A stretch of 64,000 nt of DNA from an uncultured Pseudomonadota bacterium (GCA_902787665.1 CADAHF010000002.1:2637-66636); one strand, 5' to 3'; counted from the stretch's first letter, positions 1,420 to 24,537 are shown. A program made the numbers and translations. Notes: generated by a model not told the origin, from the sequence alone.

Positions 1420-1767
1420 TTAACAACCCATATCATCGCAAATCGCACGCATAATTGTATATGTTTCCGCAGGTTCATAATGAACAACTGGGCGATATGT
1501 TTGAACTGTTTCGCGCACAAAATATTCACGTGCAATCACTTCTTCATATTCTTTACCACATGATTTTTCTTCTGTAACAACAGGTTTTTCAATTTCTTTA
1601 TCACAAACGACCTTTGTGATAACCGCATGATGCGCGCTAACTGCACGATTTAATTCGGCACGCATAACATTTATATCACAATTATCAGTATGTAATTCAA
1701 CAACTTCGGCATTTGCCATCGTTGCCGCAAAAAATCCAATAACGGACAAAGCCAAACTCTTTTTCAT
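1420..1767 (-). CDS. small secreted cysteine-containing hypothetical protein
   Basis: ORF track 115 aa. N-terminus MKKSLALSVIGFFAATMANA looks like a Sec signal peptide. No family recognised. Confidence 0.55.
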   Translation of the reverse strand: MKKSLALSVIGFFAATMANAEVVELHTDNCDINVMRAELNRAVSAHHAVITKVVCDKEIEKPVVTEEKSCGKEYEEVIAREYFVRETVQTYRPVVHYEPAETYTIMRAICDDMGC

Positions 1768-2419: not shown

Positions 2420-2977
2420 TTATTTTATGTGCTGATTAATTAAACTATCGATATTTACGGCACCTTTGGCACGTTCTGCTTCATACGATTTTAAAATACT
2501 TTTTGCAAAATCTATCTTTTCCTGTTTTGCCTTGATTTGTTTTTTATTTTCGTAATTTATGTCAATTATCTCAATACCGATGCCTAATAGAACCAATCCA
2601 CCAATGATTGCCACTTGTTTTACTTTATCTTTATTTTTACTGAAAACTTTCTTTATTTTTAATTTCAGAGATTCTTGATCATGTTTACAATCATAATAAA
2701 GGTTTTTTACTTCATTATACAATGTCGGTGATTTATCCCCGTAAATGTTTTTGCCATTAATTTTAGCAACATTAACCACTGTACCTTTTTTCTCTATTGG
2801 ATAAAAAACAATATTCACAGACAAATCCGTAAAATCGTGTTCTATTTTTAACCGTACATCTTCAACAAACACGTCGTATTTCTTGCGATTCTTGTTCAGT
2901 TTCATTATGTTATCCAAAATCTCTTTTTCTGACTTATTTTCCCAATTTGAATCAAACTCTTCCGGTATAGTATACAT
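2420..2977 (-). CDS. hypothetical single-TM protein, tandem paralog A
   Basis: ORF 2420..3034; start moved to MYTIPEEF (AAGGA RBS). Shares INGK.(I/V)Y..K(S/T)P.LY..(V/I)K.LY and C-terminal (S/Q)YE.ER.K..VNIDSLIN.H with the next gene. Confidence 0.6.
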   Translation of the reverse strand: MYTIPEEFDSNWENKSEKEILDNIMKLNKNRKKYDVFVEDVRLKIEHDFTDLSVNIVFYPIEKKGTVVNVAKINGKNIYGDKSPTLYNEVKNLYYDCKHDQESLKLKIKKVFSKNKDKVKQVAIIGGLVLLGIGIEIIDINYENKKQIKAKQEKIDFAKSILKSYEAERAKGAVNIDSLINQHIK

Positions 2978-3066
2978 AAACAATCCTTTTTTATCACCGA
3001 TAAAAAATAACACAATTTTACTTATTGTCAACAAACTTGTGTTAAAAAGCCCGTTTGATGACTTTA

Positions 3067-3615
3067 TTAACGCATGTGTACATTAATTAAACTATCGATA
3101 TTGACCATATCAGATTTGTTACGTTCCAATTCGTACTGTTTCAATAACTCTTTAACGTTTTGTTTATCCTGATGTTTGGTTGCATCTTGAACAATTCCGC
3201 CATACCAACCAAAAACTCCAAACACACAGGCTGCCAGTGCTAACACATATAAAACTTCTTTGTTTTTATACAACGAATTCTTCGCTTTTTCTTTAAAAGA
3301 CATCTTTGAACGACTGCACCAATCATAAAGGAATTTGATATTCTCGTATAAATCTGGAGTTTTGTTTTGATAAACAGTCTTGCCATTGATCGTTACAATA
3401 TTTTCCTTGTCGTTGTTTTTTCGTCCAACGGTGCCAAATTTTATCTTAAGATTACCGGCAATGCCATACGCACCTTTGTTTGTAACATAAAGGTATATAT
3501 TGCCCTTATCTGTTATGTTAATATCATATGTTTTGCGATTTTCAATAAAACCGTTTATTTTTTTCGACACTTCATCATCTGTCCAACCTGACCAATTATC
3601 CGAATATTTCGTCAT
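3067..3615 (-). CDS. hypothetical single-TM protein, tandem paralog B
   Basis: ORF track 182 aa, GGAG RBS. Paralogous to 2420..2977 (same conserved blocks, one hydrophobic helix near the C-terminal third). Confidence 0.65.
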   Translation of the reverse strand: MTKYSDNWSGWTDDEVSKKINGFIENRKTYDINITDKGNIYLYVTNKGAYGIAGNLKIKFGTVGRKNNDKENIVTINGKTVYQNKTPDLYENIKFLYDWCSRSKMSFKEKAKNSLYKNKEVLYVLALAACVFGVFGWYGGIVQDATKHQDKQNVKELLKQYELERNKSDMVNIDSLINVHMR

Positions 3616-7126: not shown

Positions 7127-8629
<1,503 letters not shown>

Positions 8630-8959
8630 TTAAAAAACTTGTGGTTTAAGTCCCGTGCATATTTAAACAAAGCTGACTTAATTTCAGTTCGTCTTTACAT
8701 ATATATATTCGCAAGACAAGTTTTAACGAGGTTTATATGTAAACCTACTACCTGTCCAGGATATGCACATTTGACTTAGTCAAAGTTTGGATATTCCAAA
8801 TTCAACTGTCTGCACATCCCTTCTTGAATTTTGATGAGCTGCTTTTATTCACAATGTGCGCAGTTTTATCGGTACCCCGTTCTTAGCGTTCGTTCCGTAA
8901 ACCGCAGAATTTCAGGGGTTGAGATACTTATATAAATGGTTCCCAACTTGAAAGCCCGT

Positions 8960-8990
8960 ATACTATGAATTGAAAGACCAAAAAAGTCAA
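8960..8990 (-). promoter_or_regulatory. candidate rRNA promoter (TTGACT-17-CATAGT) with A/T-rich UP-like tract upstream
   Basis: On the minus strand: TTGACT (8990-8985), 17 nt, CATAGT (8967-8962). The 40 nt upstream are almost pure A/T. The -10 is weak, so this is tentative. Confidence 0.3.
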
Positions 8991-9204
8991 GCGATTTTTC
9001 AAAAATAATTTACAAAAAATCATAAAGAAATAAAAAACCGCAGAAATCCGCCATTTGACAAAAACAAGCATTTTGTTTTCTTGGCTTTTTTCGATTCGTA
9101 TTTAGCTTAGAAAACCGAATCATCGTTCTGTTTTTACCGATTCGGTGTCCAGTATCAAAAAAACAAAGACAAACAAAAAATCTGTTTTTTATCCTTACCT
9201 TTTA

Positions 9205-9213
9205 TGATATAAT
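9205..9213 (+). promoter_or_regulatory. extended -10 element TGaTATAAT ending 8 nt before ATG 9222 (leaderless candidate)
   Basis: tgatataat at 9205-9213, then ttatcatt-ATG. No Shine-Dalgarno. Confidence 0.35.
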
Positions 9214-9221
9214 TTATCATT

Positions 9222-10433
9222 ATGAAAATGAAGAAATATGTTTTTTCATCTCTGCTTGTAATCTGCGGGATGACACCTGTCCTGGCGTCTGATTGTACGG
9301 GGACAGATTGTGATATCGAACAAATACAATATGTAAACGAAGCACGCGCATCGGACTATATCGCGCCTGCACCATTTATGGAATACGACGAACCTGTGGA
9401 ATACATATACGCAACTCAGATTCCAATGCGTTCGGTCAAGATGTTGTCTATTAAACCGGTTCCGACCGATACACGTCCACCGCTTTGGGACGGCACACAT
9501 GGCGCACAACAACCAACCACTTACACAAAAACGGTCAGCTGGCGCGACGGCGCACCATTGTGGGACGATTCGGTTGTGAATTATCGCGATAAAAACTATT
9601 ACGATTGGTATTTGGAACCAATGCCTGAAATCTATATTCGCGAAGCAGATGCACCGGCATTTACCGAATCGGTTGATGTTTATGAAATGTATGATGAAAA
9701 TATGGCATCCGCGGCGGCGACACGTGCGCGCATTGATGAAATATTAACCCCAGTGCGTCCTAAATTTGATTTGTGGTCTGAAAAATACACCGCCCAGGAT
9801 ATGACAGATATTGTTGAAACCGCGTTTGGCGCAAACGATGGCTGTCCATTTGAAACAGAAACAGAATGTGAAATCTGGCGTCGCAAACCAATTGTGCGTG
9901 AAACGGTTTCACCACGCAGCCCGCGCATCCGTGACGACGCTATGGATAAATTTATCAGCGTTATAAAATACGACGGTGATGTTGACGCCACAGTACCTGA
10001 GGCTGCACCATTGCTTGCCCGTTATAAAATGTTAATGCAATCTGCAAATGCATGTTGTACCGACGGTTTGGCATATGCGTTGAAAAGCGCGGGTGCATCA
10101 GACGGTTTGGTTTATAAATTTATGGCGGACGATGCGAACTTTTATGGTTTTGGTTCGCGTTGTTTAATGATGACTGATGAAGAATTGGATACAAAATATC
10201 CAAACACCGCGACTGCGGCGGTTGCCGCCGATGTTCGCAACGGATGTTTATGCCGTGGCCGTCAATGGTTCAAAGCGATGCTTGCACCTTTTGCTCAGGC
10301 TTATGAAGCAGCACCAGAATTTGCAAATCAAAAGTTCTATTATACATACACCGATGGTCTGCAACGACAAACCACTGTATCAATAAATAATGACGTCCAG
10401 AACGTGTTGAAACAGCTAGAGTTATGTCCATAA
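9222..10433 (+). CDS. secreted cysteine-containing hypothetical protein (403 aa)
   Basis: ORF track. Signal peptide MKMKKYVFSSLLVICGMTPVLAS; Cys pairs (DCTGTDCD, ACC, CLC). No family recognised. Confidence 0.7.
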   Translation: MKMKKYVFSSLLVICGMTPVLASDCTGTDCDIEQIQYVNEARASDYIAPAPFMEYDEPVEYIYATQIPMRSVKMLSIKPVPTDTRPPLWDGTHGAQQPTTYTKTVSWRDGAPLWDDSVVNYRDKNYYDWYLEPMPEIYIREADAPAFTESVDVYEMYDENMASAAATRARIDEILTPVRPKFDLWSEKYTAQDMTDIVETAFGANDGCPFETETECEIWRRKPIVRETVSPRSPRIRDDAMDKFISVIKYDGDVDATVPEAAPLLARYKMLMQSANACCTDGLAYALKSAGASDGLVYKFMADDANFYGFGSRCLMMTDEELDTKYPNTATAAVAADVRNGCLCRGRQWFKAMLAPFAQAYEAAPEFANQKFYYTYTDGLQRQTTVSINNDVQNVLKQLELCP

Positions 10434-10445
10434 CAGCAAACAATT

Positions 10446-10472
10446 AAAACGCCCCACGGGGCGTTTTTTTTG
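10446..10472 (+). terminator. intrinsic terminator ACGCCC-cacg-GGGCGT + T8
   Basis: Hairpin at 10449-10464 followed by tttttttt, 13 nt after the stop of 9222..10433. Confidence 0.75.
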
Positions 10473-10486
10473 TTGATTAGTGATTA

Positions 10487-10514
10487 ATAATAAAAACCGC
10501 CCGTGTGGGCGGAA
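10487..10514 (-). terminator. intrinsic terminator CCGCCC-acac-GGGCGG + T-run (minus strand)
   Basis: Hairpin at 10497-10512. On the minus strand it is followed by TTTTTATTATT, directly 3' of 10518..11261. Confidence 0.7.
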
Positions 10515-10517
10515 TCT

Positions 10518-11261
10518 TTAATACGACGGATACGTCCGTCCTTTTGATTGTTGTTCCATGTTATAAGACGCTTTTGACACCATAGCGTTTAATTGGTTTG
10601 CACATGGCGTAATTGAATTCGATGTTGCCTTTAAATTATTACATTTATCCAGATTTTTGTATACACCATTTTCCTCAGTAACAATACCCCATGTTGCTGC
10701 TGCCTTTAAATCTTCTTCTAATTGTTTTTTTGCTTCGCCAATGTTATTACCCCCACGAACCGTATTCATTACTAATTGTATATTAGACATCAAACACGAA
10801 TAAGCGTTTTGATATGACATTGACACGCAATCTTGGGCACCCGCTAATTTCACACTGGAATTATTCATACGAAAAGACGAACCCGATGATGTTTCACCTG
10901 TATCTGCGCCAGCGGCCGCCAATTTTGTTTTCAGCACTGCTTTTTCTAATTGCGTCCTGAACCGTTTAACCATCGCATCAAGGTATTCATATTGCTGATA
11001 CATCTGTTGTGTCATAACGGTTGTTTTAAGCGCAATAGTTTCGCGCATTTCTTGTTTTTTCGCGCTGTCTTTGGTGTTCTCGGTTTCGCCAATGTTATAA
11101 ACATGTGTTGAACACAGCGCCAATGTCGGTGAAATATAATCAGCATCATCTTTATCACAACCATTACTTGCCGCAAAAGCACCGTTTGATGCGCACAGCA
11201 CAGCCGCCACACCAATCGCGCGTAACATTTTTGCATTAAAGATTTCGTTTTTCATTTTCAT
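10518..11261 (-). CDS. secreted cysteine-containing hypothetical protein (247 aa)
   Basis: ORF track. Signal-like AIGVAAVLCASNGAFAAS; start overlaps the stop of the upstream gene (ATGA-type coupling). Coiled-coil-like middle. Confidence 0.7.
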   Translation of the reverse strand: MKMKNEIFNAKMLRAIGVAAVLCASNGAFAASNGCDKDDADYISPTLALCSTHVYNIGETENTKDSAKKQEMRETIALKTTVMTQQMYQQYEYLDAMVKRFRTQLEKAVLKTKLAAAGADTGETSSGSSFRMNNSSVKLAGAQDCVSMSYQNAYSCLMSNIQLVMNTVRGGNNIGEAKKQLEEDLKAAATWGIVTEENGVYKNLDKCNNLKATSNSITPCANQLNAMVSKASYNMEQQSKGRTYPSY

Positions 11262-12949
11262 TGCGCCACTGTCTCACATTTTTTCTTATCTGTAGCGTTG
11301 CTAATCATAGAACAATCACACATATTGTAGCCATCGATCCATCTTCCACCCCAACCTGTACAATTAGCTTGTTTCATTAATAATATGTCATAGTTGGAAA
11401 GTCCGCCGTTCCCGGTTGTTGAAGATGTTGTTGTATTGTTTATGTTTGACGATGTTGTTCCGCTTACGGTTAATGGGCTGCGCACACCGTTATTCCATTC
11501 TTGTCTTGTCAAACAAACCTTTGTTGGCAATTTCTTTAATTCTGTTAATTTCTGCAAATCATCATTTTCACCAACACAGTATTTTATTGCATCTGCACCC
11601 TTGGCACTTGTTGGTGCATCTTGGGCAATAATGCGTTGCAGCGTTTCAATATCAATAGTTGCCTGTTTTTTACGATTGCGGAACAAGCCCGATGAATCAA
11701 GAATTTCCGACATACAACCAACACGTATGCGCGATTCTTCACCATACTCAGGATTTAACCAGTTATAGCGAACCTCTTCATCATTATTAATCATACCCAA
11801 CGGCTGACAACCACCATCGGACGGCGGAATAATTTTTCCAATTTCACACTTCTGTCCACCAATAACAAAGTTAGATTTTGATGGGTCTGATGTTCCATTT
11901 GGACAATTTGTTTTGGTATAGCGCAAATCTTGACGTTCTTCGCACAGATATTTGCCCCACACATTGCAAGACCCGTTCAACATCATATATATATCTGTAA
12001 TATCAACACCCACCGATTGCGCCAAAATTAACGCATCATACATTTCGTCCAAAACATTTTCATATGGATCAAAAAATGCCTCTGCTTTCTGTTTAAATAT
12101 TTTTACGCGCTTTGGTCCAGTACAATTATTTCCACGCGAATCACAGCCCGCATAGTCAAACGCATCAACCATTGTCGTCTTTAAAGTTTTTAATTGCGTT
12201 TCTGCATTTTCAACCGCAGATAAAATTTGACCAGAAATCTGTTCACGCGCCAAAACATCCGCCGAAACACCGCTTTGTGCCGCTGCAATTTGCGAATCGT
12301 TCAATGCACTTGTATTTGTCGCAGCTTGCACCGGTTGCGATGTCGCCGCTGCACGTGCCGCAGATGCCTCTGCTAATGCGTTTGCGGTTAATTCCCGCTG
12401 TTCCTCCAATGCGCTTTGTAATTGCGCCACGGTTTGTGCATTTTGCGCCGCCATTTGCGATTGCATTTGTTGCATCTGTTGTTGCATTTGCGCCAACTGT
12501 TGTGCACTTTGCTGTGCCGCCGCACTTGCCGCGGCATTTTGTGCCTCATTCGCAGCTGCATTTGCTTTGGCTGTGCTTTGCGCAACCAACTGTGCCGCGA
12601 TATATTGTGTTAATTCGTCACCATATTGTTTACATGCCGCATTTGATTGAACACAACCGTTTACAATCGAAAAAGTAACATTTAAATCAGTACAACCACC
12701 ATTGCTACATTTCGGCTGTGCACAGCGCAAAATAACCGCATTACAATTACCGAAATCAGCAGTTGCCGCCGGACCCGTTCCGACACTGCGGGAATTCATC
12801 ATATTGTTCCAACGTTCGTTATTTGTTGCGCCACTTTCGCCGTTATACGCGGTCAAATTATTACCCAATGTCGAAGATACAACGGCATGCACCGCACCAA
12901 AGGGTACGACACATAATGCCACCAACAAAAATCTGGCAATTTGTTTCAT
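11258..12949 (-). CDS. secreted cysteine-rich protein with Gln/Ala-rich coiled-coil region (563 aa)
   Basis: ORF 11258..13198 trimmed to MKQIARFLLVALCVVPFGAVHA (ATG 12949). The 83 upstream codons run through palindromic repeats and are judged spurious. It has a 6-Cys module and a long AQQ/MQQ tract. Confidence 0.7.
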   Translation of the reverse strand: MKQIARFLLVALCVVPFGAVHAVVSSTLGNNLTAYNGESGATNNERWNNMMNSRSVGTGPAATADFGNCNAVILRCAQPKCSNGGCTDLNVTFSIVNGCVQSNAACKQYGDELTQYIAAQLVAQSTAKANAAANEAQNAAASAAAQQSAQQLAQMQQQMQQMQSQMAAQNAQTVAQLQSALEEQRELTANALAEASAARAAATSQPVQAATNTSALNDSQIAAAQSGVSADVLAREQISGQILSAVENAETQLKTLKTTMVDAFDYAGCDSRGNNCTGPKRVKIFKQKAEAFFDPYENVLDEMYDALILAQSVGVDITDIYMMLNGSCNVWGKYLCEERQDLRYTKTNCPNGTSDPSKSNFVIGGQKCEIGKIIPPSDGGCQPLGMINNDEEVRYNWLNPEYGEESRIRVGCMSEILDSSGLFRNRKKQATIDIETLQRIIAQDAPTSAKGADAIKYCVGENDDLQKLTELKKLPTKVCLTRQEWNNGVRSPLTVSGTTSSNINNTTTSSTTGNGGLSNYDILLMKQANCTGWGGRWIDGYNMCDCSMISNATDKKKCETVAQ

Positions 12950-13027
12950 ATTCTCTCTTGAGCATAATTTTAACATAAAAAGTGCAAAGTGCAAAGTGGA
13001 AATTGCAAATAATGTGTGCCATACGGT

Positions 13028-13177
13028 TCTCTTACTTGTCACCCCGGTGCAGTCCGGGATCCACTGCTGTGTTTCTCTCTTACTCGTCATCCCCGCGAAG
13101 GCGGGGATCCACTGCTGCGCAGCAATAATCAATATTTGCCTGCGGCGCATTGGATACCGACCTGCGTCGGTATGACA
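13028..13177. repeat. three copies of a small palindromic element (two direct at 48-bp period, one inverted); flanks TGGAT..ATGAC conserved, stems differ
   Basis: Copies at 13028-13069 and 13076-13117 are about 80% identical, with hairpins CCCGG-tgcagt-CCGGG and CCCCGC-gaag-GCGGGG. 13151-13177 reads TGGAT-ACCGAC-ctgc-GTCGGT-ATGAC in the opposite orientation. Confidence 0.75.
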
Positions 13178-13179
13178 AT

Positions 13180-13308
13180 GACTACCCCGTCGCTTCACGC
13201 CACCCCTTCAATTAATGAAGGGGGTTTCGGTATGATTCCAGAAAACAAAAATCCCCTTCACTAGGTGAAGGGGTGGATTGTGAGCAAGGCGAACAAGACG
13301 GGGTAGTC
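13180..13308. repeat. 129-bp element bounded by 12-bp perfect inverted repeats and containing two copies of a CCCCTTCA/TGAAGGGG hairpin
   Basis: gactaccccgtc (13180-13191) and gacggggtagtc (13297-13308). Internal hairpins at 13203-13223 and 13253-13273. Confidence 0.7.
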
Positions 13309-13348
13309 TCCCACACCAATGGAGCAGGGGTCGCTTGCGCGATTAAAC

Positions 13349-13377
13349 AAAAAACCGCCCAAATGGGCGGTTTTTAT
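13349..13377 (-). terminator. intrinsic terminator ACCGCCC-aaat-GGGCGGT, bidirectional shape
   Basis: Hairpin at 13354-13371 with A-run before and T-run after, 14 nt 3' of the 1058-aa gene. Confidence 0.75.
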
Positions 13378-13390
13378 TATCGCGTTCTAA

Positions 13391-16300
13391 TTATTCCAAA
13401 CTTGTTGTGATGATGTCGCCGTACGAACCTGCCTCATCCCCACCGATATAACAAGTAATATGACGACCAACATTGTTCATGAATTCTTCGATAGCAGCTT
13501 TTTCTTCTGCATCAAGATTCGAACGTTGGATATCGCGTGTTGCCTTGTACATTAACAAGCCGCTTGCCAATGCGGTAACAGCCGTGGTTGTAGGTGTAAT
13601 CCAACCTGTCTTTTTCTGAACATGGTCGTTTTCACTAGTTTTTGACGTTAACTGTTCACAACGATTTTTCAACGCGTTCATTGCCGACAACATAGGTGCT
13701 TCAGAACTACTATTTGCAAGCACTTCCTTGCCATTATCTTTTTTGCATGCACTTGAACGTCCTTGGTTATCAAGTACACATGTGTAATTTTCCGCTGCTG
13801 TTTCTGCAACATTTGTGTTAACACCAGCTTCTTTTGCCTGACGTATTGCTTCTTGTACATAAGCTTTTCTTGTCGTGATAGAAGCACTGTCTGTTGCATT
13901 AAAACCATCTACTGCCGCGACACATTCTTGTGCTGCTTCACCAATGGTGGTTTTCTTGTTCTTTTCGTCCAAATTGGTCAGCCCCTTCATGACATTACCG
14001 TTAGTGATGCCTTCACCCAGGAAGTATCCACCAACACCGCCACCCAAGACACCAAGTGTTGTTGTCCAGAATGCTGTGCGGTCTTGCGATTTACGCATAT
14101 TTTCTGTTTTGTCATCGGCAACATCTTGCGCGATTCTTTTCAAATCACTTTCTGGAATCCAAGAACCACATGTGAAACTGTCACCGGTTGCAAAGTATGC
14201 GGTTGTCCATGATTTGTTCTTCATATATTCCTGAATCTTTTTATCGTCCGATTGCAAAGTGATACGAACACGACAGAAAGAACCATACAAATCATTACTT
14301 GCTGTAAAGGCGGTCTGTTTTAACCCATTGACTGTATAATCAGATGGCACACGATCACCCTTAAGCTTGACCCACATAAATGTGCTGGACATATCATTCT
14401 TGCCCATTATACCGCCATTGTTTGACGACATACACATATTTTGTTCCTTGGTCAACTTTGCGTTATATTTCGCTTGAGCTTCTCTCTCAATATCATAAAG
14501 CAAATCATTAAACAAAGTCTGTGCACCTGCATATACGTAATTATCCGGACTATAAACAAGCTGTGCAGAATTACCGTTACCACTCAGAACTTCATCTCCA
14601 TTTTCTGTCATGAATAAATTATTCCCATAGGCATCTGTCACAACACGTTGTGGATAAGAAGTAACATCATTATTCACAATTTCGTAACGACTTGTGATCC
14701 AACTATCCCTCACAGATGTTGCGTCACCCCACGATTCAGAAGTATTCGTGTTTCCTTTTAATTTCAATTTAGCAGTCTCGATCGCTAAGTGTTCTTCACA
14801 AGCTGATGCATTCTTGACGGTATCTAAACACAACCCTAACACAATTGTACGATCAAGCACACCATTGACTTTAAGCATAGATCTATTGTAGATTTCGCCT
14901 GCAGTATCACCAGTCCCATACGTACTTGATGCAGTAGCCCTTCCCAAATCAGACCAAATATCCGTCCGATTACGATAGCAATTCACATAATCATTACCGC
15001 ACATAGATTTAACACAACTTGTTGCCACAGATTGACATTGTTTTTTCATTTGCGCCAATGCGGCATCATTATAATTTGTTGCCAGCGCAGAATTCAACGA
15101 TGCAACAACACCGATAACATCGTTTTCGTTACCACCATTGTATGCTGGGAACAATGTATCAAATGCATCCTTGTTTATATAATTATATGTATATGGACCA
15201 GTTGCACTTGGGTTTGCAACAGCATACATACAATTTGTATCCGTATTCACAATCGCCGCGCAACCCAATTTGATTTCATCGTATGTTGCAGTGCCATTTA
15301 TGCTTTTATCCGCGCCACCATACACCAATGAATAACATGCCGCGCCAGAACCACCACCGCAAACACGCATCGCACAAGATTTGATTGTTTCGGTACACTT
15401 GTTTTTCGCCTGGGCATCGAATTTATCAACCAATTCTGCAATTTTTGTCTTCATTCCGGCATTCATACGCGATGCATACGCTTCAGCATAAACATCTTCC
15501 TGGTTTCCTTCATCGCGCAACTGGGCATTTGTTGGCATTTGACCATTACCGATAAATGTAGCATAGCAATATTTACTTGCCCCCACTGTTTCAAAACAAG
15601 CGTTTTTGATGTATGCCGCGATACTGGACTTGTTCACCATTGTTGTGACCAATTCAGTGGTCAATGGTGTGCCATTATTTATCGCATCAACAATATCAAC
15701 AACCGATTGGTCGCTATTTTCATAGCACTTGTATGGATTTTCCGCACACGCGCCCAAAATACATTGATCAACAACCTTGTAACAAGTTGACACCGCGTTA
15801 ACCGCCGCCAAAGCCGCACCTTCGTTAATCATTTCGCCAACGCGACTTGTTTTTGATGGCGCTGCTGTTAATGTGGACGAACCCAATAATTCTTTGACAC
15901 CATCGCCACTGCAACGCGCCAATGTAGAATCACAGAACACGCGCTGTTTACGGAATTCTTTATCCGTTGTGCAAAGTTCAAAATCATTTCCACAAACGGT
16001 ATCTTTCTTTAAGCACGATGTATAACGACGAACACATGTTGATGTATCATAACGATTTGCAATCGATGCCGCCGTTATCATTTGACCCAAAACACTGCCG
16101 TCGGTTGGGTATGTATAATCAGTGATTTCGCCATAAGTATTTTTCGCCGCAACATTAGACAATGCCGACACAACCGATGTTCCAAACAAACTTTCAACCC
16201 CAGACGCTGAACATTGGGCAAGTGTGCTTAAACACTTTGGCATTTGGGCATGGAACAAGATTTTGTTTGTGCATTCTTCAAAATTTTCGCCACACGCATC

Positions 16301-16567
16301 AGCCCCAGAAATACATTCACGATACGCATCAATACATTCGCTGTTTGCCATCAATGCCGCCGCCGTTGTTGTTGCCCCGGTTGCAGACGAAGTCGAAACC
16401 GAAGAACCAGCCGTCACCAATTTTGGCATCCGCGATGCAGTAGTCATACTGACACGCGCAGAATCCGTAGCGATTGTTCCGCGTGCCGTCGCCGCATATG
16501 CCGCCGGTATTGCAGACAAAAGTGCGATAAAACCAACTGTTTTTTTGAATAAATGCATTTGACTCAC
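13391..16567 (-). CDS. large secreted cysteine-rich protein with repeated 6-Cys modules and two C-terminal TM helices (1058 aa)
   Basis: ORF track. Signal peptide ..FIALLSAIPAAYAATA. Modules C78-G129 and C178-G229 are exactly 100 aa apart and alignable. Hydrophobic FWTTTLGVLGGGVGGYFLG and WITPTTTAVTALASGLLMY lie near the C-terminus. Confidence 0.75.
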   Translation of the reverse strand: MSQMHLFKKTVGFIALLSAIPAAYAATARGTIATDSARVSMTTASRMPKLVTAGSSVSTSSATGATTTAAALMANSECIDAYRECISGADACGENFEECTNKILFHAQMPKCLSTLAQCSASGVESLFGTSVVSALSNVAAKNTYGEITDYTYPTDGSVLGQMITAASIANRYDTSTCVRRYTSCLKKDTVCGNDFELCTTDKEFRKQRVFCDSTLARCSGDGVKELLGSSTLTAAPSKTSRVGEMINEGAALAAVNAVSTCYKVVDQCILGACAENPYKCYENSDQSVVDIVDAINNGTPLTTELVTTMVNKSSIAAYIKNACFETVGASKYCYATFIGNGQMPTNAQLRDEGNQEDVYAEAYASRMNAGMKTKIAELVDKFDAQAKNKCTETIKSCAMRVCGGGSGAACYSLVYGGADKSINGTATYDEIKLGCAAIVNTDTNCMYAVANPSATGPYTYNYINKDAFDTLFPAYNGGNENDVIGVVASLNSALATNYNDAALAQMKKQCQSVATSCVKSMCGNDYVNCYRNRTDIWSDLGRATASSTYGTGDTAGEIYNRSMLKVNGVLDRTIVLGLCLDTVKNASACEEHLAIETAKLKLKGNTNTSESWGDATSVRDSWITSRYEIVNNDVTSYPQRVVTDAYGNNLFMTENGDEVLSGNGNSAQLVYSPDNYVYAGAQTLFNDLLYDIEREAQAKYNAKLTKEQNMCMSSNNGGIMGKNDMSSTFMWVKLKGDRVPSDYTVNGLKQTAFTASNDLYGSFCRVRITLQSDDKKIQEYMKNKSWTTAYFATGDSFTCGSWIPESDLKRIAQDVADDKTENMRKSQDRTAFWTTTLGVLGGGVGGYFLGEGITNGNVMKGLTNLDEKNKKTTIGEAAQECVAAVDGFNATDSASITTRKAYVQEAIRQAKEAGVNTNVAETAAENYTCVLDNQGRSSACKKDNGKEVLANSSSEAPMLSAMNALKNRCEQLTSKTSENDHVQKKTGWITPTTTAVTALASGLLMYKATRDIQRSNLDAEEKAAIEEFMNNVGRHITCYIGGDEAGSYGDIITTSLE

Positions 16568-16640: not shown

Positions 16641-17591
16641 TTATGCTGATTCCAGTATATATTTTAACTCTGTCATGTCGTCTGGTAATTTTGCCTTGAA
16701 ATGCATTTTTTCACCAGTTATAGGGTGCACAAATTCCAGAACCTCTGCGTGCAACATTTGACCATCGTGCGTTTTGATAAAATCCAGCAAATCCGCGTTT
16801 TTGACCGACCCCAACCGTGATGATCCACGACCATAAACCCCATCACACAAAACCGGAAAACCATGCGCCGACAAATGTACACGAATTTGATGTGTTCGAC
16901 CAGTTAAAAGAGTGCATCTAAATTCACTTACCCCGACACGTGACCAGGCGTTTATACAATCGACCAAAGTGGTGGCTGGTTTGCCCCCTGTTTTAACCAT
17001 ACTCATTTTTTGGCGATTACGCGATGAACGCGCAATATTTCCAGTAATTGTCGCAGATTCCCAATTTGGCACACCCCAAACAAACGCGATATATTTTCGG
17101 GTTAAATCGTGCGCCATAAATGTTTTTACCAGTCCGTTATATGCCGCATTAGATTTTGCAAAAACCATAACCCCACTGGTGTCTTTATCAAGACGATGAA
17201 CAACACCTGGACGAACACTTCCCCCAGCCGATGCCAACGGTGTATGCGCCAATATATTTTGCACCAAAGTCCCAGTTTTATTCCCCGCAGACGGATACAT
17301 AACAACACCGCGCGGTTTATTCACAACAATAATATCATCGTCTTCGTATAAAATATCCAAATCAAAATCTGTTGAAACATTTTGTGCCGCAACCGTTGCT
17401 TGTTTTTCCGGAATTTCAACGGTTATTTTGTCCCCAGCACAGACTTTTTCAGAAAATTTTACATTTTTACCATTACGCAAAACTTGGAATTTTTGAATCT
17501 CACTGCGCGAAAATTCGGGCATAGAACCAGCCAAGAATTTATCAAGGCGCACACCAACACTTTCATCACTAACAACAAAATCACGAAACAA
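16641..17591 (-). CDS. rluD: RluA-family 23S rRNA pseudouridine synthase (RluD-like, S4 domain + catalytic HRLDKDTSG)
   Basis: VRLDKFLA S4 motif, HRLDKDTSGVMVFAK catalytic motif, TGRTHQIRVH. TTG start with AGGGG RBS. Confidence 0.85.
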   Translation of the reverse strand: MFRDFVVSDESVGVRLDKFLAGSMPEFSRSEIQKFQVLRNGKNVKFSEKVCAGDKITVEIPEKQATVAAQNVSTDFDLDILYEDDDIIVVNKPRGVVMYPSAGNKTGTLVQNILAHTPLASAGGSVRPGVVHRLDKDTSGVMVFAKSNAAYNGLVKTFMAHDLTRKYIAFVWGVPNWESATITGNIARSSRNRQKMSMVKTGGKPATTLVDCINAWSRVGVSEFRCTLLTGRTHQIRVHLSAHGFPVLCDGVYGRGSSRLGSVKNADLLDFIKTHDGQMLHAEVLEFVHPITGEKMHFKAKLPDDMTELKYILESA

Positions 17592-17601
17592 TATGCTGCC
17601 C

Positions 17602-18072
17602 CTATTTATATTCGTCCCAATCTTTGCCTATTTTGCATTTGGACATGTCGATTTTTAATTCGCGACCATCGGCATCAACTGGACAAGTCAACATTCCGGT
17701 ATTTGTTGCATCGTCTGCATCACGTCCGGCATGGCGATATGAAAAATTAATCTCTGTCGGCGCATAAACACATGCAATGCGTAAATCCCCATCGTGATTA
17801 TTGCGCGGACCAAACCAAACACGCACACCTTCGCCCAAACCATAGCACGGGAAACCGTCCAAATAGTATAAAATCAAACCTTTGGACCCGATTAATTTAG
17901 AATCTGTTTTGAAAACGCCACGATATTCGTTTAACAACAAACCGGTTATACCCTGCCAATCTGTACTTGTTGAAAAAATGCTGACGCGTGGCGCTGGCGC
18001 CGGTTGGTTATCGGCAATCGCAAAATTTCCGCATATCAAAATTCCACATAATGCAACAATTACCTTCTTCAT
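17602..18072 (-). CDS. small secreted hypothetical protein
   Basis: ORF 17602..18099 trimmed to MKKVIVALCGILICGNFAIA (ATG 18072, GGGGGA RBS). No family recognised. Confidence 0.6.
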   Translation of the reverse strand: MKKVIVALCGILICGNFAIADNQPAPAPRVSIFSTSTDWQGITGLLLNEYRGVFKTDSKLIGSKGLILYYLDGFPCYGLGEGVRVWFGPRNNHDGDLRIACVYAPTEINFSYRHAGRDADDATNTGMLTCPVDADGRELKIDMSKCKIGKDWDEYK

Positions 18073-18076
18073 CCCG

Positions 18077-18583
18077 TTATTCCCCCATTTGCATTTCAAC
18101 CGTTATCTTTGCCACACCATCTGTTGTACCAGATAACACATGGTTAAATTCAACCGTTTCCCCCGCATCCAATACCGGCACAGAAGGCAAGAATTTTTGT
18201 TTAGAAATCGCATTCCCAGATGCATCCATTGATACAAACACCAGGTCTGGCACCCCATAAATTTGCGCGGTTCTATTTACAACCGCACCCCGTACAACAT
18301 AATGCGCAACACCATCTGCACCCTTAACCGTTTTTATTTCGCTAATTTCTGCGACAAGTGGTTTATGCGCAACATCGTCCATTCGATTACTTACCACAAC
18401 CGCAACAACAAACACAATTGCCGACAACAATGCACACGCCGCCGCAATAAACATCATTATTGCGCCGCGTCGTGACGGTGTTGACACAACCCATGTATGC
18501 CCACAAACCGCACATTTAACCGGCGTTGTTGGCGCACGATCAATCGTATATTCTGTTTTACAAAAATCGCATTTTATTTTCAT
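18077..18583 (-). CDS. MJ0042-type zinc-ribbon membrane protein with DUF3426-like C-terminal domain
   Basis: MKIKCDFCKTEYTIDRAPTTPVKCAVCGHTW has two CxxC pairs. This is followed by one TM helix and a beta-rich domain (architecture recognised from memory). Confidence 0.65.
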   Translation of the reverse strand: MKIKCDFCKTEYTIDRAPTTPVKCAVCGHTWVVSTPSRRGAIMMFIAAACALLSAIVFVVAVVVSNRMDDVAHKPLVAEISEIKTVKGADGVAHYVVRGAVVNRTAQIYGVPDLVFVSMDASGNAISKQKFLPSVPVLDAGETVEFNHVLSGTTDGVAKITVEMQMGE

Positions 18584-18606: not shown

Positions 18607-19914
18607 TCACAATTTCAACAAACTATATTTAGCGCGCACTTTATTTTGAATTTCTTGTATCGCATTCATATAATCCGCAACCGTTGCATTTTTGTTTGCC
18701 GCAACCGCCGAAAAAGTGCGCCCAGCCACGGTTGACTTGTCTGCCTCTTTATACACAATCAAAGTCGCCATACGTTCTAATTCAGGAAAAGAAACATCAT
18801 AAAAATTCGCTGTTTTATTTTTCACATCCCAATAATATTTATCGTTCACAGAATCTACAACTTTATCACGCACAACAAGACGCGGTGTAATTGATCCAGA
18901 AAAACCAACTGTTGTATAAACAGCACTTATGCGTCCACCAGTCATGTCAAGACGTTGATTTATATTTAATACCGCCGCTTTAGAAGAATTAGACAATCCA
19001 GATAATGACAAAGTATTTGTCCATAAATCTTTTACTGTGAAATTTGAAAACTTTCCAGTGTCTGCCAACGACAATGTTCCCGCAATTTCCATCGTTTTAG
19101 AATCAGCAGACAAATTTCCAACACATGTCGCACTTTTCGTTTCCAGTGCACTGTCAATTGTTGTACGATTTGAAAACACAACCTTGTCTGCCGCAACAGT
19201 AATCGATTTTAAATTTTCATCAAATTGCGCACCGAATGCATCAAAGTATTTTGTTGCAACAATATCATGTCCCCCAAGGTTTAATGGCGACAACATTTTT
19301 GCGTCGTCTGCATTGTCTGACGGTTCACGCCACAGGTAAAGAGCATTATCGCGTCGTACCGATGTTGTCGTAATGATTCCATCTGGAACATTTACACCAA
19401 TATCAATCGCATCTGTATGCCATGCACCAAATGTTCCGTATGCATGGGTTCCTTCGATAAATCCCATATTATCGCCACCAACCTCTACAATTTGTCTTGT
19501 GCGCAACGGCGATATAGTTGTATCAGACATAACAACCACGCCCTGAAGCGTTGCTTGACCAGTAGAATCAGCAGACTTCAAAACACGTAATTGATATTTA
19601 TTACCATCTTTTTCGATTATACTTTCTGCAATACCATATTCTGCTAAATCGGCAATATTAACACGCGTTATACTTTTGCCCGCCACATTTAATAATGCAT
19701 CACGATTTAATACAATATACCGTTCAAGTGCATTTTGAACATCTTGCATTTGACGCGCCACAGTAATATTTTCGGCACGCACCACTGAATCTTGTTGATA
19801 TTTGAACAAAAACGGCAAAACCAGCGCAACAATTGCAACACTCATCAATAACTCTATCAGCATGCCCCCATGTTGATTACGAATTGCAGAAAAAATACTA
19901 TTCTGTGATTTCAT
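18607..19914 (-). CDS. large prepilin-type N-terminus protein, paralog 3 (435 aa)
   Basis: N-terminus ..IRNQHGG/MLIELLMSVAIVALVLPFLF (Gly, then Glu, then hydrophobic helix with Pro). Shares YL(W/H)R..D...L(N/D)(L/M)GG..I block with the two upstream genes. Confidence 0.7.
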   Translation of the reverse strand: MKSQNSIFSAIRNQHGGMLIELLMSVAIVALVLPFLFKYQQDSVVRAENITVARQMQDVQNALERYIVLNRDALLNVAGKSITRVNIADLAEYGIAESIIEKDGNKYQLRVLKSADSTGQATLQGVVVMSDTTISPLRTRQIVEVGGDNMGFIEGTHAYGTFGAWHTDAIDIGVNVPDGIITTTSVRRDNALYLWREPSDNADDAKMLSPLNLGGHDIVATKYFDAFGAQFDENLKSITVAADKVVFSNRTTIDSALETKSATCVGNLSADSKTMEIAGTLSLADTGKFSNFTVKDLWTNTLSLSGLSNSSKAAVLNINQRLDMTGGRISAVYTTVGFSGSITPRLVVRDKVVDSVNDKYYWDVKNKTANFYDVSFPELERMATLIVYKEADKSTVAGRTFSAVAANKNATVADYMNAIQEIQNKVRAKYSLLKL

Positions 19915-21122
19915 TATTGTTCACCATATCCCGTCGGTATAACATTTTTCCAATCGCTTGACATTAATGCTTCAAATTCGTGTTCATTTGGCATTGATGG
20001 AATCTTTGCGCGCGAAATCCTAAATCCTGTAAAACTTGGTGGCACGGTTGATGGAAACGCCCACGCACCAAGTTTTATTGGCGAATTTGTTGATAGCATA
20101 AGTTCCCCAGATACCGTCAAACCAAAATTATCATAAAACATTATTTCTGTGGTTGATAAAAAAGGAGTGTAAACCGTTCCTGCCTTGACCCCAGCAAAAC
20201 CACTTATTGTACGCAAAGAATCTGTTTTCAAAATCATATCTTTCGAAACATTTAAGGAATCTGATACTGTTGCCCGATCGGTAATTATGCGCCCAGATGT
20301 TGAAAAACCATTGTTGTTTAGTTTATTTGCATAAATATTACGAAAGCCAATAATATCGTCTGTAACACGCAACGAACCAATCGAAACATTGTTTCCGGTC
20401 ATATTAGCGCCGTTTGAAAAATAAATTGTATTTGCAACTAAATCATTTGATGTCACAAAAGTCGATGTCACATCTTTGATACGCGATGCAGATGCAAATA
20501 CCCCACCAACATCATATATGTTGTAACCACCCATATTTAAATCACGTAACATCACATTTAATTCGTCATCACCAGAAGTTCCACGATGTAAATACTTTGT
20601 TTTGTCTTCGCCCGACACATTACGCGTTATACGATATACTAAATCCCCAGATTCAAATTCTGGCGCGCTAACCGCCCAACTGCGACCATACGCAATACCA
20701 TCACTATCAACAATCGCCGCATCGTCACCAATATGATGTGCAATATTTGCAGTGTGCAGATTTGTCGAACCAAATTTAAACGCCAAATACACATCTGTTA
20801 CTGATGCACCATTTACAAGATATTTATCAATAAATCCCGCATTCGCCCCAGTTGCAACCATATCCAAATCTGTATCATTCATTTTTATTTGTGCAACATC
20901 TGGCCATGTATCTTGATTTAAACGAATAAAGTTTAACACATCTGGACGCAGGTTCGTTATATCACGCGCAACGGCCATATCGCGAATATTACTATTTGTT
21001 TCGGCAATTTGAGAATACACAAAAGGCATGGCAACCGCAACAATTGCCATTGACATCAGTACCTCTAAAATACTGGCGCCACGATTTATACTGTCAAAGA
21101 TTTTTGTTTTAATTACAGTCAC
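19914..21122 (-). CDS. large prepilin-type N-terminus protein, paralog 2 (402 aa)
   Basis: GTG start. N-terminus ..SINRG/ASILEVLMSMAIVAVAMPFVY (Glu at +5). Stop overlaps the ATG of the next gene. Confidence 0.7.
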   Translation of the reverse strand: MTVIKTKIFDSINRGASILEVLMSMAIVAVAMPFVYSQIAETNSNIRDMAVARDITNLRPDVLNFIRLNQDTWPDVAQIKMNDTDLDMVATGANAGFIDKYLVNGASVTDVYLAFKFGSTNLHTANIAHHIGDDAAIVDSDGIAYGRSWAVSAPEFESGDLVYRITRNVSGEDKTKYLHRGTSGDDELNVMLRDLNMGGYNIYDVGGVFASASRIKDVTSTFVTSNDLVANTIYFSNGANMTGNNVSIGSLRVTDDIIGFRNIYANKLNNNGFSTSGRIITDRATVSDSLNVSKDMILKTDSLRTISGFAGVKAGTVYTPFLSTTEIMFYDNFGLTVSGELMLSTNSPIKLGAWAFPSTVPPSFTGFRISRAKIPSMPNEHEFEALMSSDWKNVIPTGYGEQ

Positions 21123-22467
21123 TGTTCCCCGCCAACAAACATTGTTTGATATCTATTCTTTTTTCCAATCGTTGCCAATATACATACTGACAAATTATAT
21201 ACTGCGCCAACGAATGTTGATTATACACACCATCAAGCGATGATATTATCGCACGACACGAAACTGTTTTTGAATCATCCGCTGATGGTGTCGCTAAAAT
21301 TTCAAAACCCGTATTATCAATTGTTGAAACATACGCATCTGGCAACAACGATGTTCCAGCCGGACGAATATCCAACACAACAGCACCCGACCCACCACGC
21401 GACAATGAATCAGATGTTTGGTCACGCAATGTGATATTTGATGTGTGTATAGTAGATGTTTCTATACCGCTGTTAGCATTGTATTCAAGTGTATTCGCAT
21501 TTATATACACATCTTGACCACGCGATGCATTTATAAAAGAATCTATTTCTAATCTTTCTACATTAAGGTTTATATTGCTTGATATAACATTACCTTTGAT
21601 AATCCATTTTTCTGGACCATAAAAACTGGTTCTGTTTGCAGACATTGCAAAATCATATACCCCAGCAGAATTTAATGTTATGTTCCCAGTATCACCATAA
21701 CGAGATATTGTTTTTGTTGAAACATTATCTACAACCATTGTTCCACGCGTCAAAGACAATGAACTTTCACCTGTTTTAGATTGGAAAATCGTTTTATCTG
21801 CAACCATTGTTGAAATTTTATTACGAACACTTCTGTCCGTTTCAACGCCATTAATAGTAAGAGACCCCACTTCCAATCCGTCAAATTCGCCACGACGCGC
21901 GATTGCCCGACCAATATTTGAAATTGAATTTTCACCCATATCTAAATCAACCAAAAATGCACTTGTATCGACATCGGGTTCATTTCTGCGCACAACATCA
22001 GAATAAATTGTTTCCAATGGAACACCAATTTGAATTGTTCCGTCACCCACATCAAAAGCATAAAAACCAATACGTCGCACCAGTTCGCCACGCAACATTT
22101 CATTTAAATCACCGCCTGTCAATTCAACATATGCTGAAATTTCTTCGGCATTTTTATCAATAACCAATGCTATATCTTGTCCCAACGCCGTCTTTGCCAC
22201 AAACCCAAGTGGCAATCCATACGGTTCCAAAATATCAGCAAAAGAATTACCTGCAATTACCGTTCGGTTATATGGCAAATTAGACACATTTTCACGAATA
22301 AAAATACGTGCCACAGTTGTTGCATTATCAACTTTTTGCGTTGTTGCATACATGCGCGCATTATTTTCACGGCCCATAAGTTTTATCGCAAAAAAGGGAA
22401 TGAACATAAACAGTAACGTTAATGCCAACAATGCCTGCAACAAAAAGTTTCCGCGGCTATTTTGCAA
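21109..22467 (-). CDS. large prepilin-like N-terminus protein, paralog 1 (~452 aa; ORF track extends to 22521)
   Basis: Preferred start is TTG 22467, preceded by GGAGGGGGG. This gives leader MQNSRG/NFLLQALLALTLLFMFIPFF (Gln instead of Glu at +5). The 22521 TTG has no RBS. Confidence 0.6.
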   Translation of the reverse strand: MQNSRGNFLLQALLALTLLFMFIPFFAIKLMGRENNARMYATTQKVDNATTVARIFIRENVSNLPYNRTVIAGNSFADILEPYGLPLGFVAKTALGQDIALVIDKNAEEISAYVELTGGDLNEMLRGELVRRIGFYAFDVGDGTIQIGVPLETIYSDVVRRNEPDVDTSAFLVDLDMGENSISNIGRAIARRGEFDGLEVGSLTINGVETDRSVRNKISTMVADKTIFQSKTGESSLSLTRGTMVVDNVSTKTISRYGDTGNITLNSAGVYDFAMSANRTSFYGPEKWIIKGNVISSNINLNVERLEIDSFINASRGQDVYINANTLEYNANSGIETSTIHTSNITLRDQTSDSLSRGGSGAVVLDIRPAGTSLLPDAYVSTIDNTGFEILATPSADDSKTVSCRAIISSLDGVYNQHSLAQYIICQYVYWQRLEKRIDIKQCLLAGNSDCN

Positions 22468-22624
22468 GATGTACCCCCCTCCTACACCCCTTAGAATAGC
22501 AATACAAAAAAAAGATTGCAATCAGTTTTAAGATACTTTATTATTACGCATGTTTAAGAACGTAGGCGCAATAAAATTGATATTGTCACCTGCAAAAATG
22601 TTTTCCATAAAAAAGAAAAAAAAT

Positions 22625-22994: not shown

Positions 22995-24521
22995 ATGGAT
23001 AGCAACTATACCGTTTTAGCAAGAAAATATCGCAGTCAAGATTTTGCATCATTAATTGGCCAGGATGTTTTGGTAAAAACACTTACCACTGCAATCAACA
23101 CTGGTCGTATTGCACACGCGTATATTTTCACTGGAATTCGTGGAACTGGAAAAACTAGTACTGCACGTATTTTGGCCAAGGCATTGAATTGTTTGTCCTC
23201 TGATGGACCAACTGCAACACCATGTGGGGTTTGTGAAAATTGTCGTGCAATCGCTGCGGGTCAACATATCGATGTTATGGAAATTGACGCTGCATCACAT
23301 ACCGGTGTTGATAATATGCGTGAAATTTTGGACGCGGTCCAATATCGTCCAACAAACGGCAGATATAAAATTTACATCATTGACGAAGTTCACATGTTAT
23401 CAATAAGTGCTTTTAACGCACTGCTTAAAACATTGGAAGAACCACCTGCACACGTTGTGTTCATTTTAGCAACAACCGATATTCGCAAGGTTCCTGTTAC
23501 AATTTTATCGCGTTGCCAACGTTTTGATTTGGTGCGCGTTCCAGTTGAAACCTTAAAAAAGCATTTTGCAAACATTGCCGAAAACGAAAAGATTGAATTG
23601 TCTGATGCTGCAAACGAATTGTTGGCACGTGCCGCTGATGGTTCTGTGCGCGATGGTTTATCATTACTTGACCAGGCAATTGCTCAAACTGGTGGGCACG
23701 TTGATGAAACAGCAGTGTTAAATATGCTTAAACGCGCAGATCGCGGTGTTGTTACCGGGTTAATGGAAACAATATTGTCTGGTGACACTGCTGCTGCATT
23801 GGAACGCGTTGATGAAATATATAACAATGGCGCAGACCTTTCTATGTTATTAACAGACATGATGGAATGGACACATTGGGCAACACGCATGCATCCCGCA
23901 TTGCATGCTGGGGATTCAACATCGGCACCATATACGGCTGACCAGCGCACTAAGATTCGCAATATAAATTCACAAATAACATTAAACACTCTTTCGCGCA
24001 TATGGCAGGTTATGGTTGCCTCTGTGGCAGAGATGCAGGCATCCAGCAATCAAAAACAATGCTTTGACATGCTGATTGTGCGTTTAATGCACATTGCTGA
24101 ATTACCGTCGGTTGCAGAAATTATTAATAAACAAACAACCACACAAACGGCACCGAAACCATCTGTGGCACCTGCACCGAAAAAGACAGAAATTACATCG
24201 GCAACAGATTTGGCGGCGGCATTACAATCTGACAAAGAAATATTACTATATTCATATTACACAACGAATATCGAAGTATCTGAATTTACGCCGGGCAAGA
24301 TTGTATATTTTGATCGTGGTGATGACACAGAATTTGAAAAAAAATTATCAATATGGTTGCGTAACAAAACAGGTTCCGCATGGACATTGGATCGCAACAT
24401 AAAATCAGAACATGCACAAACTGTGACCGAACAAAAGCGTCAGGAAATTGCATCTGACCCAATGGTTGCAGACGCAATGAGCTTATTCGAAGATGCGGAA
24501 ATTGTATCTTCTACAAAATAA
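22995..24521 (+). CDS. dnaX: DNA polymerase III subunit gamma/tau
   Basis: YRSQDFASLIGQDVLVKTL..AHAYIFTGIRGTGKTSTARILAKALNC, Zn module CGVCENC, DEVHML, SRCQRF. Start moved to MDSNYTVLARKYR. Confidence 0.9.
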   Translation: MDSNYTVLARKYRSQDFASLIGQDVLVKTLTTAINTGRIAHAYIFTGIRGTGKTSTARILAKALNCLSSDGPTATPCGVCENCRAIAAGQHIDVMEIDAASHTGVDNMREILDAVQYRPTNGRYKIYIIDEVHMLSISAFNALLKTLEEPPAHVVFILATTDIRKVPVTILSRCQRFDLVRVPVETLKKHFANIAENEKIELSDAANELLARAADGSVRDGLSLLDQAIAQTGGHVDETAVLNMLKRADRGVVTGLMETILSGDTAAALERVDEIYNNGADLSMLLTDMMEWTHWATRMHPALHAGDSTSAPYTADQRTKIRNINSQITLNTLSRIWQVMVASVAEMQASSNQKQCFDMLIVRLMHIAELPSVAEIINKQTTTQTAPKPSVAPAPKKTEITSATDLAAALQSDKEILLYSYYTTNIEVSEFTPGKIVYFDRGDDTEFEKKLSIWLRNKTGSAWTLDRNIKSEHAQTVTEQKRQEIASDPMVADAMSLFEDAEIVSSTK

Positions 24522-24537
24522 TTTTTTGGGGGGAATT

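Follow-up and report, generated by a model that had tools for sequence, protein, structure and literature searches.

What do four exported, cysteine-rich proteins of no recognisable family do in a gut bacterium with a genome of less than 1 Mb? The question is raised by a 64,000-nucleotide (nt) stretch of DNA from an uncultured Pseudomonadota bacterium (GCA_902787665.1, CADAHF010000002.1:2637-66636), called here the window, in which the region 9222-16567 consists of four long open reading frames (ORFs), real genes that we name A, B, C and D. With moderate confidence, we read their products as lineage-specific, disulfide-stabilised proteins of the envelope or cell surface of Candidatus Enterousia, whose exposed domains are diversifying. 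This role is proposed because D, C and B contain hypervariable cassettes and because C and B occur as natural fusions. The proteins would be disulfide-bonded, exposed at the surface and anchored to a membrane, and they may serve in contact or adhesion.

The host lineage, Candidatus Enterousia, belongs to the order Rs-D84 (GTDB) of the Alphaproteobacteria. Homologues of A-D were found only in uncultured gut Alphaproteobacteria, several of them named Candidatus Enterousia, and the one complete genome among the matches measures 958,618 bp. A 2025 study of the order (PMC12306168) described genomes below 1 Mb, without respiration and with an incomplete glycolysis, reported genes for peptidoglycan and rod shape, including MreB, RodA and MrdA, and proposed an obligate symbiotic or parasitic lifestyle as likely; pili are not among the features reported in that analysis. 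With such a genome size and such a proposed lifestyle, the setting of a free-living proteobacterium, in which the initial annotation had placed these proteins, does not apply.

Hypervariable Cassettes in D, C and B

The window was compared with two loci of the same species, L093, whose DNA is about 97% identical across 15 kb, and L092, at about 92%. As listed in Table 1, D, C and B each carry regions that are hypervariable among strains between conserved flanks. Protein D was 98% identical between strains at amino acids (aa) 61-540 and 100% at aa 1001-1055, and only 24% at aa 601-680 and 28% at aa 861-1000. In the first hypervariable region (HV1) the identity to P0002 and P0003 was 24%, while the core was at 96-98%, and the corresponding DNA (14301-14900) was 63-65% identical to L093 versus 96-99% in the flanks. 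The consensus cysteine pair 649/659 is missing from HV1 of the window protein.

The second region (HV2) sits between two Gly-rich segments of D and is bracketed by the conserved Cys879 and Cys967; it is predicted to form a small helical bundle, with a predicted local distance difference test score (pLDDT) of 77-92 for aa 871-930 and 961-970. Its DNA showed 55-78% identity to L093, with indels (55-65% at 13701-14000 and 75-78% at 13401-13700). Throughout the family, the mean pairwise identity of HV2 was 21%, versus 73.5% for the core of D, in such a manner that dozens of D pairs from many Enterousia species were 97-100% identical in the core and only 14-64% in HV2. Two D pairs showed the reverse, chimeric pattern, which indicates recombination.

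A comparable replacement was detected at the C-terminal ends of C and B. The tail of C shared 54% identity with P0121, versus 97% for aa 1-480, and in the comparison with L092 and L093 aa 1-500 were about 97% identical and aa 521-563 only 10-15%; at the DNA level the identity was 81% in 11301-11600 (L093). Column conservation in this tail is 0.2-0.3, with large indels, and from one species to another its length can differ by as much as several hundred residues. For B the comparison was with L092, as L093 ends before the variable half: aa 1-120 were 100% identical and aa 121-247 20-35%, with the cysteines retained, and the DNA identity was about 65% at 10701-11000, with flanks at 93-99%. Protein A, by contrast with these cassettes, was uniformly 95-100% identical along its whole length to its counterpart in L092, of the same clade.

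Between the cassettes the DNA of L093 was 96-99% identical to the window, and the cassette boundaries are sharp at the protein level. A divergence of around 40% within loci that differ by around 3% cannot result from local drift, and implies the maintenance and exchange of divergent alleles. Near-identical flanks around segments replaced between strains are also seen in Anaplasma Msp2/P44, Neisseria PilE/Opa and Treponema TprK, and the bracketing of the most variable stretch of D by two conserved cysteines resembles the disulfide loop of type IV pilins. Unlike Msp2/P44, PilE/Opa and TprK, to which no homology was found (no Pfam match of A-D to Msp2/OMP1, Surface_Ag_2), the variation here was seen between strains and not within a clone. 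Within the 64-kb window, no silent donor cassettes or partial copies of the variable regions were found.

Two known generators of diversity were considered and rejected. For a diversity-generating retroelement, no template repeat was found in the block or the window and no reverse transcriptase among the annotated window genes, and the cassettes differ by many indels, whereas such an element makes substitutions only, at adenines; for a shufflon, the window contains no flanking inverted repeats and no partial copies.

Export Signals and Cysteine Pattern

As the initial annotation had noted, all four proteins have Sec-type signal peptides and many cysteines. Each leader has an n-region, a hydrophobic core and an AxA-type cleavage site (VLA↓S, AFA↓A, VHA↓V and AYA↓A). 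The cysteine counts (A 11, B 7, C 21, D 38) amount to 2.7-3.7% of the residues, a 3-4 fold enrichment over the mean of 0.98% across the other 46 window genes (binomial P of 2e-3 for A, 1e-2 for B, 3e-7 for C and 2e-11 for D), and other exported proteins of the window (LptD, TolC-like, OmpA-like and OmpH) are cysteine-poor. In the mature proteins the counts are all even (A 10, B 6, C 20, D 38), and the six of B are invariant in the alignment. In an alignment of 185 full-length relatives of D, around 36 cysteine columns were retained in more than 97% of the sequences, down to 20-29% identity. The losses affected groups of cysteines: 23 distant members lack the whole of the first 6-Cys module, and Cys649 and Cys659 are lost jointly in 4 of the 185, the window protein included.

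Among the cysteines of D are a tandem pair of 6-Cys modules (C-x6-C-x6-CGxxFxxC-x12-C-x6-C, at aa 75-116 and 175-216) and three 4-Cys modules (C-x6-C-x4-C-x6/7-C), and C has one 6-Cys module with a spacing similar to those of D. In the AlphaFold model of D, the C-x6-C ... C-x6-C spacing falls on predicted helices, and such i/i+7 cysteines would fit helical hairpins pinned by disulfide pairs. Disulfides between cysteines at regular intervals likewise hold helix-turn-helix units together in the Sel1-like Hcp proteins of Helicobacter, secreted by a host-associated proteobacterium, and in the twin-CX9C/CX3C hairpins. The proteins studied here differ from these in having no Sel1, TPR or CHCH match in Pfam, in the C-x6-C spacing with an extra CGxxF loop, and in being far larger and modular.

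Searches for Known Families and Folds

No significant match was obtained for A, B, C or D in Pfam, NCBIfam or PHROGs, and profile searches against the PDB returned only low-complexity or coiled-coil noise. With no PHROGs match and a base composition that is not atypical (GC content given below), A-D were not assigned to a phage or defence element. Foldseek searches at E<=0.001 found no match to the AlphaFold model of D in the PDB or BFVD, nor to that of A in the PDB. A profile of D run against 1.84 billion representative proteins recovered only 262 sequences, the most distant of which (20-29% identity) are unnamed proteins from metagenome-assembled genomes (MAGs) labelled 'Alphaproteobacteria' or 'Rickettsiales', with no significant Pfam domain; two of these distant relatives gave weak C19orf12-like matches (E about 1e-3). 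Distant relatives of D and homologues of C were likewise without a significant Pfam or NCBIfam match, and none of the 526 homologues of A carries a family name. Homology was not detectable by profile-profile comparison of C with D or of B with D. The initial description of these proteins as having no recognisable family thus stood up to remote homology searches, and the families and folds of A-D are undescribed.

Architecture of the Proteins

From its N-terminus, D consists of the Sec leader, a disordered Ser/Thr linker, a conserved helical core with the two 6-Cys modules, the three 4-Cys modules, an alpha/beta domain (aa ~681-815), the two Gly-rich hydrophobic segments and a conserved beta-hairpin domain. 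The AlphaFold (AF2) model is mainly helical with a small alpha/beta domain, and has a mean pLDDT of 68, reaching 70-90 over most of aa 70-520, 680-815 and 870-930. The hydrophobic segments correspond to what had been described as two transmembrane (TM) helices at the end of the protein. The segments are present, the first of them 100% conserved between strains, but the TM assignment did not hold, as both are Gly-rich and weakly hydrophobic (Kyte-Doolittle 19-mer maxima of about 1.1 and 0.7, and up to 1.5 in homologues). From their sequence they look like glycine zippers more than classical TM helices. D is GxxxG-rich and mildly hydrophobic there, as are the glycine-zipper segments of SlyB/PCP, the Rickettsia 17-kDa antigen and C19orf12-like proteins; unlike the SlyB/PCP type, it has no significant Pfam glycine-zipper match and is a protein of 1055 aa, not a small lipoprotein.

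In C, the Sec leader is followed by a conserved N-terminal motif, the 6-Cys module (aa 69-106), a Gln/Ala coiled-coil-like tract (aa ~105-215), a highly conserved Cys-containing domain (aa 221-480) and the variable tail. The Gln/Ala tract, already recognised in the initial annotation, is conserved in homologues. C and B are fused into a single ORF in six loci, and also in P0123, P0188 and P0192. Protein A has variable Pro-rich linkers followed by an almost invariant C-terminal domain (aa ~205-403), and its AF2 model reaches a pLDDT of 70-87 only at aa 236-403, a helical part with a beta-hairpin.

Distribution of the Locus in the Order Rs-D84

The survey covered 83 loci, taken from the assemblies that represent species in GTDB and from related ones. 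Upstream of D there was nearly always the same series of genes: pil470-pil402-pil435, a Zn-ribbon/TM protein, a small Cys-rich exported protein and rluD. In 29 of the 83 loci D is followed by C-B, adjacent to each other in every case, and about half of the 83 have A nearby. Distant D-like genes (24-28% identity) stand alone among housekeeping genes, although the order pilin-rluD-D was kept in one contig with a distant D (24% identity). To judge from these patterns, D is old and order-wide, and A and C-B were added later. The four genes had been treated as one unit; given their different distributions and their division into three transcription units (see below), they do not form one conserved unit.

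In three loci (L084, L085 and L086, at about 7300-13200) D-like genes with 24-27% identity and 39-45 cysteines lie directly 3' of ftsQ-ftsA on the same strand; the ftsA ORF of these loci also contains a domain of ribulose-phosphate epimerase and thus may represent two genes.

A fifth family of exported proteins, of 700-850 aa with 30-39 cysteines, is encoded beside D in other Enterousia species (L009 13404-15680, L032 12567-15113 and L056 1945-4074) and is absent from the window; it has in common with D a C-x6-C-x6-CGxxF/YxxC module. Between D and C-B, two loci encode a BspA-type leucine-rich-repeat protein (Pfam LRR_5; L029 13223-14983 and L006 13147-14904). Its insertion in some species suggests that the locus collects surface proteins.

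The pilin-like genes, at 18607-22521 of the window on the minus strand, encode three proteins of 435, 402 and 470 aa with type IV pilin-like class III leaders (G↓xxxxE, with Q in one) followed by a hydrophobic helix, and a 167-aa pilin is encoded near them (24493-24996, plus strand). Across the order they stay syntenic with rluD and D, and they are somewhat more variable than the locus overall (84-87% nucleotide identity in L092 versus about 92%). Always between these genes and rluD are found, both on the minus strand, the gene for a protein that combines a zinc ribbon at its N-terminus with a TM segment (18077-18583; Pfam Zn_ribbon_4), reminiscent of Caulobacter ZitP, and that for a 156-aa exported protein with four cysteines in its mature part (17602-18072).

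Gene Layout and Other Features of the Window

As had been described, the block lies between the rRNA operon (16S rRNA gene at 7127-8630) and rluD (16641-17591, PseudoU_synth_2). The sizes and strands first assigned hold for A, B and C, and D is three residues shorter than the 1058 aa given initially. Its start is the ATG at 16558, with a GGAG ribosome-binding site 8 nt before it, and the database protein P0001 has 1055 aa and the same ATG start; an exact-sequence lookup found no record of the 1058-aa form, so the GTG start is wrong. For C a longer ORF of 646 aa, reaching 13198, is possible, and all 33 aligned homologues start at MKxIxRF, so the 563-aa form was adopted. The stop of C and the start of B overlap as ATGA, in agreement with the translational coupling noted earlier. 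The promoter-like and terminator-like sites of Table 1 define three transcription units: A, C-B and D.

Table 1. Position of the genes, cassettes, hydrophobic segments and putative regulatory sites, numbered from the first nucleotide of the window.
Feature	Position	Strand	Detail	Basis
Gene A	9222-10433	+	403 aa	ORF
Intrinsic terminator of A	10446-10467	+	convergent with that of B	terminator scan
Intrinsic terminator of B	10497-10512	-	convergent with that of A	terminator scan
Gene B	10518-11261	-	247 aa	ORF
Hypervariable C-terminal half of B	10521-10901	-	aa 121-247
Gene C	11258-12949	-	563 aa	ORF
Hypervariable Cys-rich tail of C	11261-11449	-	aa ~501-563
Promoter-like site of C	12995-12967	-
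C-D intergenic region	13028-13375		two 42-nt REP-like hairpin repeats at 13028-13117
Hairpin pair in C-D spacer	13200-13276
Strong terminator of D	13375-13350	-
Gene D	13391-16558	-	1055 aa	ORF
Gly/Ala/Thr-rich hydrophobic segment 2 of D	13544-13606	-	aa ~985-1005; homologues IASGIGAGVGAIAGGILAH
HV2 of D	13607-13978	-	aa ~861-984
Gly-rich hydrophobic segment 1 of D	14015-14083	-	aa ~826-848, TTTLGVLGGGVGGYFLGEGI	hydropathy
HV1 of D	14519-14938	-	aa 541-560 and 601-680
Promoter-like site of D	16612-16585	-

The GC content of the block is 0.41-0.45, versus 0.38-0.43 in its flanks. Each of the repeats resembling repetitive extragenic palindromic (REP) sequences between C and D has a GC-rich hairpin, and the repeats translate as 'IPAFAGMT'. 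Around 240 nt of this spacer are missing in L092 and L093, which points to its repeats as a small mobile or insertion-prone element.

Outside the block, the window contains a small exported Cys-rich ORF (1420-1767, minus strand; 115 aa, 5 Cys, 4.3%) with no family match. Beside the 5S rRNA gene, in an AT-rich stretch (GC 0.34), there are two adjacent, paralogous-looking ORFs of 204 and 182 aa (2420-3615, minus strand). Each has a TM segment in its C-terminal part and ends in 'NIDSLIN.H..'; the ORF of 204 aa, the one of the pair covered by the Pfam scan, gave no match.

Discussion

The initial annotation had proposed a lineage-specific surface layer or a secreted complex. The surface or envelope part of this proposal is supported by the cassettes and by the C-B fusions, and a surface layer (S-layer) in the strict sense is not favoured. 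S-layer proteins are usually poor in cysteine, which counts against it.

That A-D are released from the cell, as effectors, toxins or nutrient scavengers exported by a type II secretion system (T2SS) or by a type IV pilus-like machine partly encoded nearby, appears unlikely to us. T2SS cargo typically has a Sec leader and a fold rich in disulfides; A-D have such leaders and, judging by their cysteine pattern, would acquire their fold in the periplasm. D has three pilin-like genes and a pilin beside it, in a synteny kept at 24% identity of D, and the variable regions could mirror an arms race with targets. However, the only genes of such a machine in the window are the pilin-like ones, with no secretin, ATPase or platform gene; rluD separates them from D, which has its own promoter-like site, and synteny is uninformative in reduced genomes. 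Moreover, the conserved hydrophobic Gly-rich segments of D suggest anchoring. A lattice cross-linked by intermolecular disulfides that gives the envelope mechanical rigidity, as in chlamydiae and as suggested initially, is in our opinion rather improbable. A-D share with the chlamydial OmcA/OmcB/MOMP complex that they are Sec-exported Cys-rich proteins of an obligately host-associated bacterium with a small genome, but they have no sequence or fold similarity to it: no match to OmcA, OmcB/Chlam_OMP6 or DUF11 was found at E<=1 in Pfam and NCBIfam, nor any in PDB profiles. They are mainly alpha-helical, and the even numbers of their cysteines, spaced as in helical hairpins, point to intramolecular pairing. 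A structural lattice would not be expected to have hypervariable cassettes that differ by allele, and a sacculus is expected in a lineage for which MreB, RodA and MrdA have been reported (PMC12306168).

Could the cysteines be ligands instead of disulfides, in periplasmic metal-binding or redox proteins? Many of them are invariant, and the host, a strict anaerobe, has neither a respiratory chain nor a known quinone-linked route through DsbB. Nevertheless, A-D contain no CxxC, CxxCH or His-rich motifs, their cysteines are placed seven residues apart on helices and in paired modules, the counts are even and one pair is lost together, and hypervariable cassettes are not expected in metalloproteins, all of which makes this explanation very improbable. 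Finally, a homologue of C, UniRef100_A0A9D1SM96 (P0239), is named 'IncF plasmid conjugative transfer protein TraN', which would make C a TraN-like protein for mating-pair stabilisation in an F-type conjugation system. TraN is Cys-rich and, as C, Sec-exported and of about 600 aa. We give this possibility hardly any credence, as C, P0239, P0188, P0233 and P0123 had no TraN match in Pfam or NCBIfam at E<=1, and there was none in the PDB. No tra genes are nearby, the neighbours being rRNA, rluD, pilin-like genes, dnaX, lpxD and similar, and in hundreds of MAGs the locus is part of the chromosome, next to rRNA and housekeeping genes. The name of P0239 has no profile support and looks like an annotation error.

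The reading of A-D as disulfide-stabilised envelope or surface proteins has its own difficulties. The host is an anaerobe without a respiratory chain, which poses a problem for disulfide formation, and no Dsb or VKOR gene was found in the window or the compared loci, which represent a small fraction of the genome; a motif search for DsbA-like ORFs in all compared loci found none either, and is uninformative for the same reason. No route across the outer membrane was found, and the cellular location of A-D is deduced from sequence features. The Gly-rich segments of D fall below the hydrophobicity of classical TM helices, the confidence of the D model is moderate, and that of A is poor over its N-terminal 235 residues. 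As synteny in reduced genomes is kept regardless of function, the link to the pilin cluster is weak.

Within the envelope reading, the parts could be arranged as follows. D, the ancient core of the set and common to the order, would have a large helical body stapled by its cysteines. Its two glycine-zipper-like segments would bracket the small helical domain closed by Cys879/Cys967, which is replaced between strains. C and B would work as a single complex: C would provide a coiled-coil stalk, tipped by its variable Cys-rich tail, and B would add an N-terminal half that is conserved and a C-terminal half that varies. A, which does not vary, would be their partner, as an enzyme or as a factor for assembly or scaffolding. 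The variable cassettes would be the exposed parts, with alleles kept in the population and swapped by recombination, under selection exerted by phages, by antibody of the host or by the specificity for partner cells. It is also possible, although less likely than not, that D is an undescribed envelope protein of the whole order Rs-D84 whose two glycine-zipper segments display the allelically replaced domain at the cell surface, and that D and the C-B stalk together make up a new variable apparatus of surface or contact, one that sets the specificity for partner, host or phage in this obligately dependent alphaproteobacterium of the gut.

Exported, Cys-rich envelope proteins whose variable regions resemble those of antigens are, in principle, already known from other bacteria associated with hosts. 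Rs-D84 and Enterousia occur widely in human, livestock, bird and termite guts, where they are thought to live off other cells. D, encoded by 3.2 kb, present throughout the order and with around 36 near-invariant cysteines, is together with its cassette-bearing partners a strong candidate for the interface of cell contact, and for a target of phage and antibody pressure. The locus also offers practical handles: antibodies or tags to locate the cells and their partners, allele typing for the tracking of strains, a case of disulfide formation in a strict anaerobe without a respiratory chain, and new folds for structural biology.

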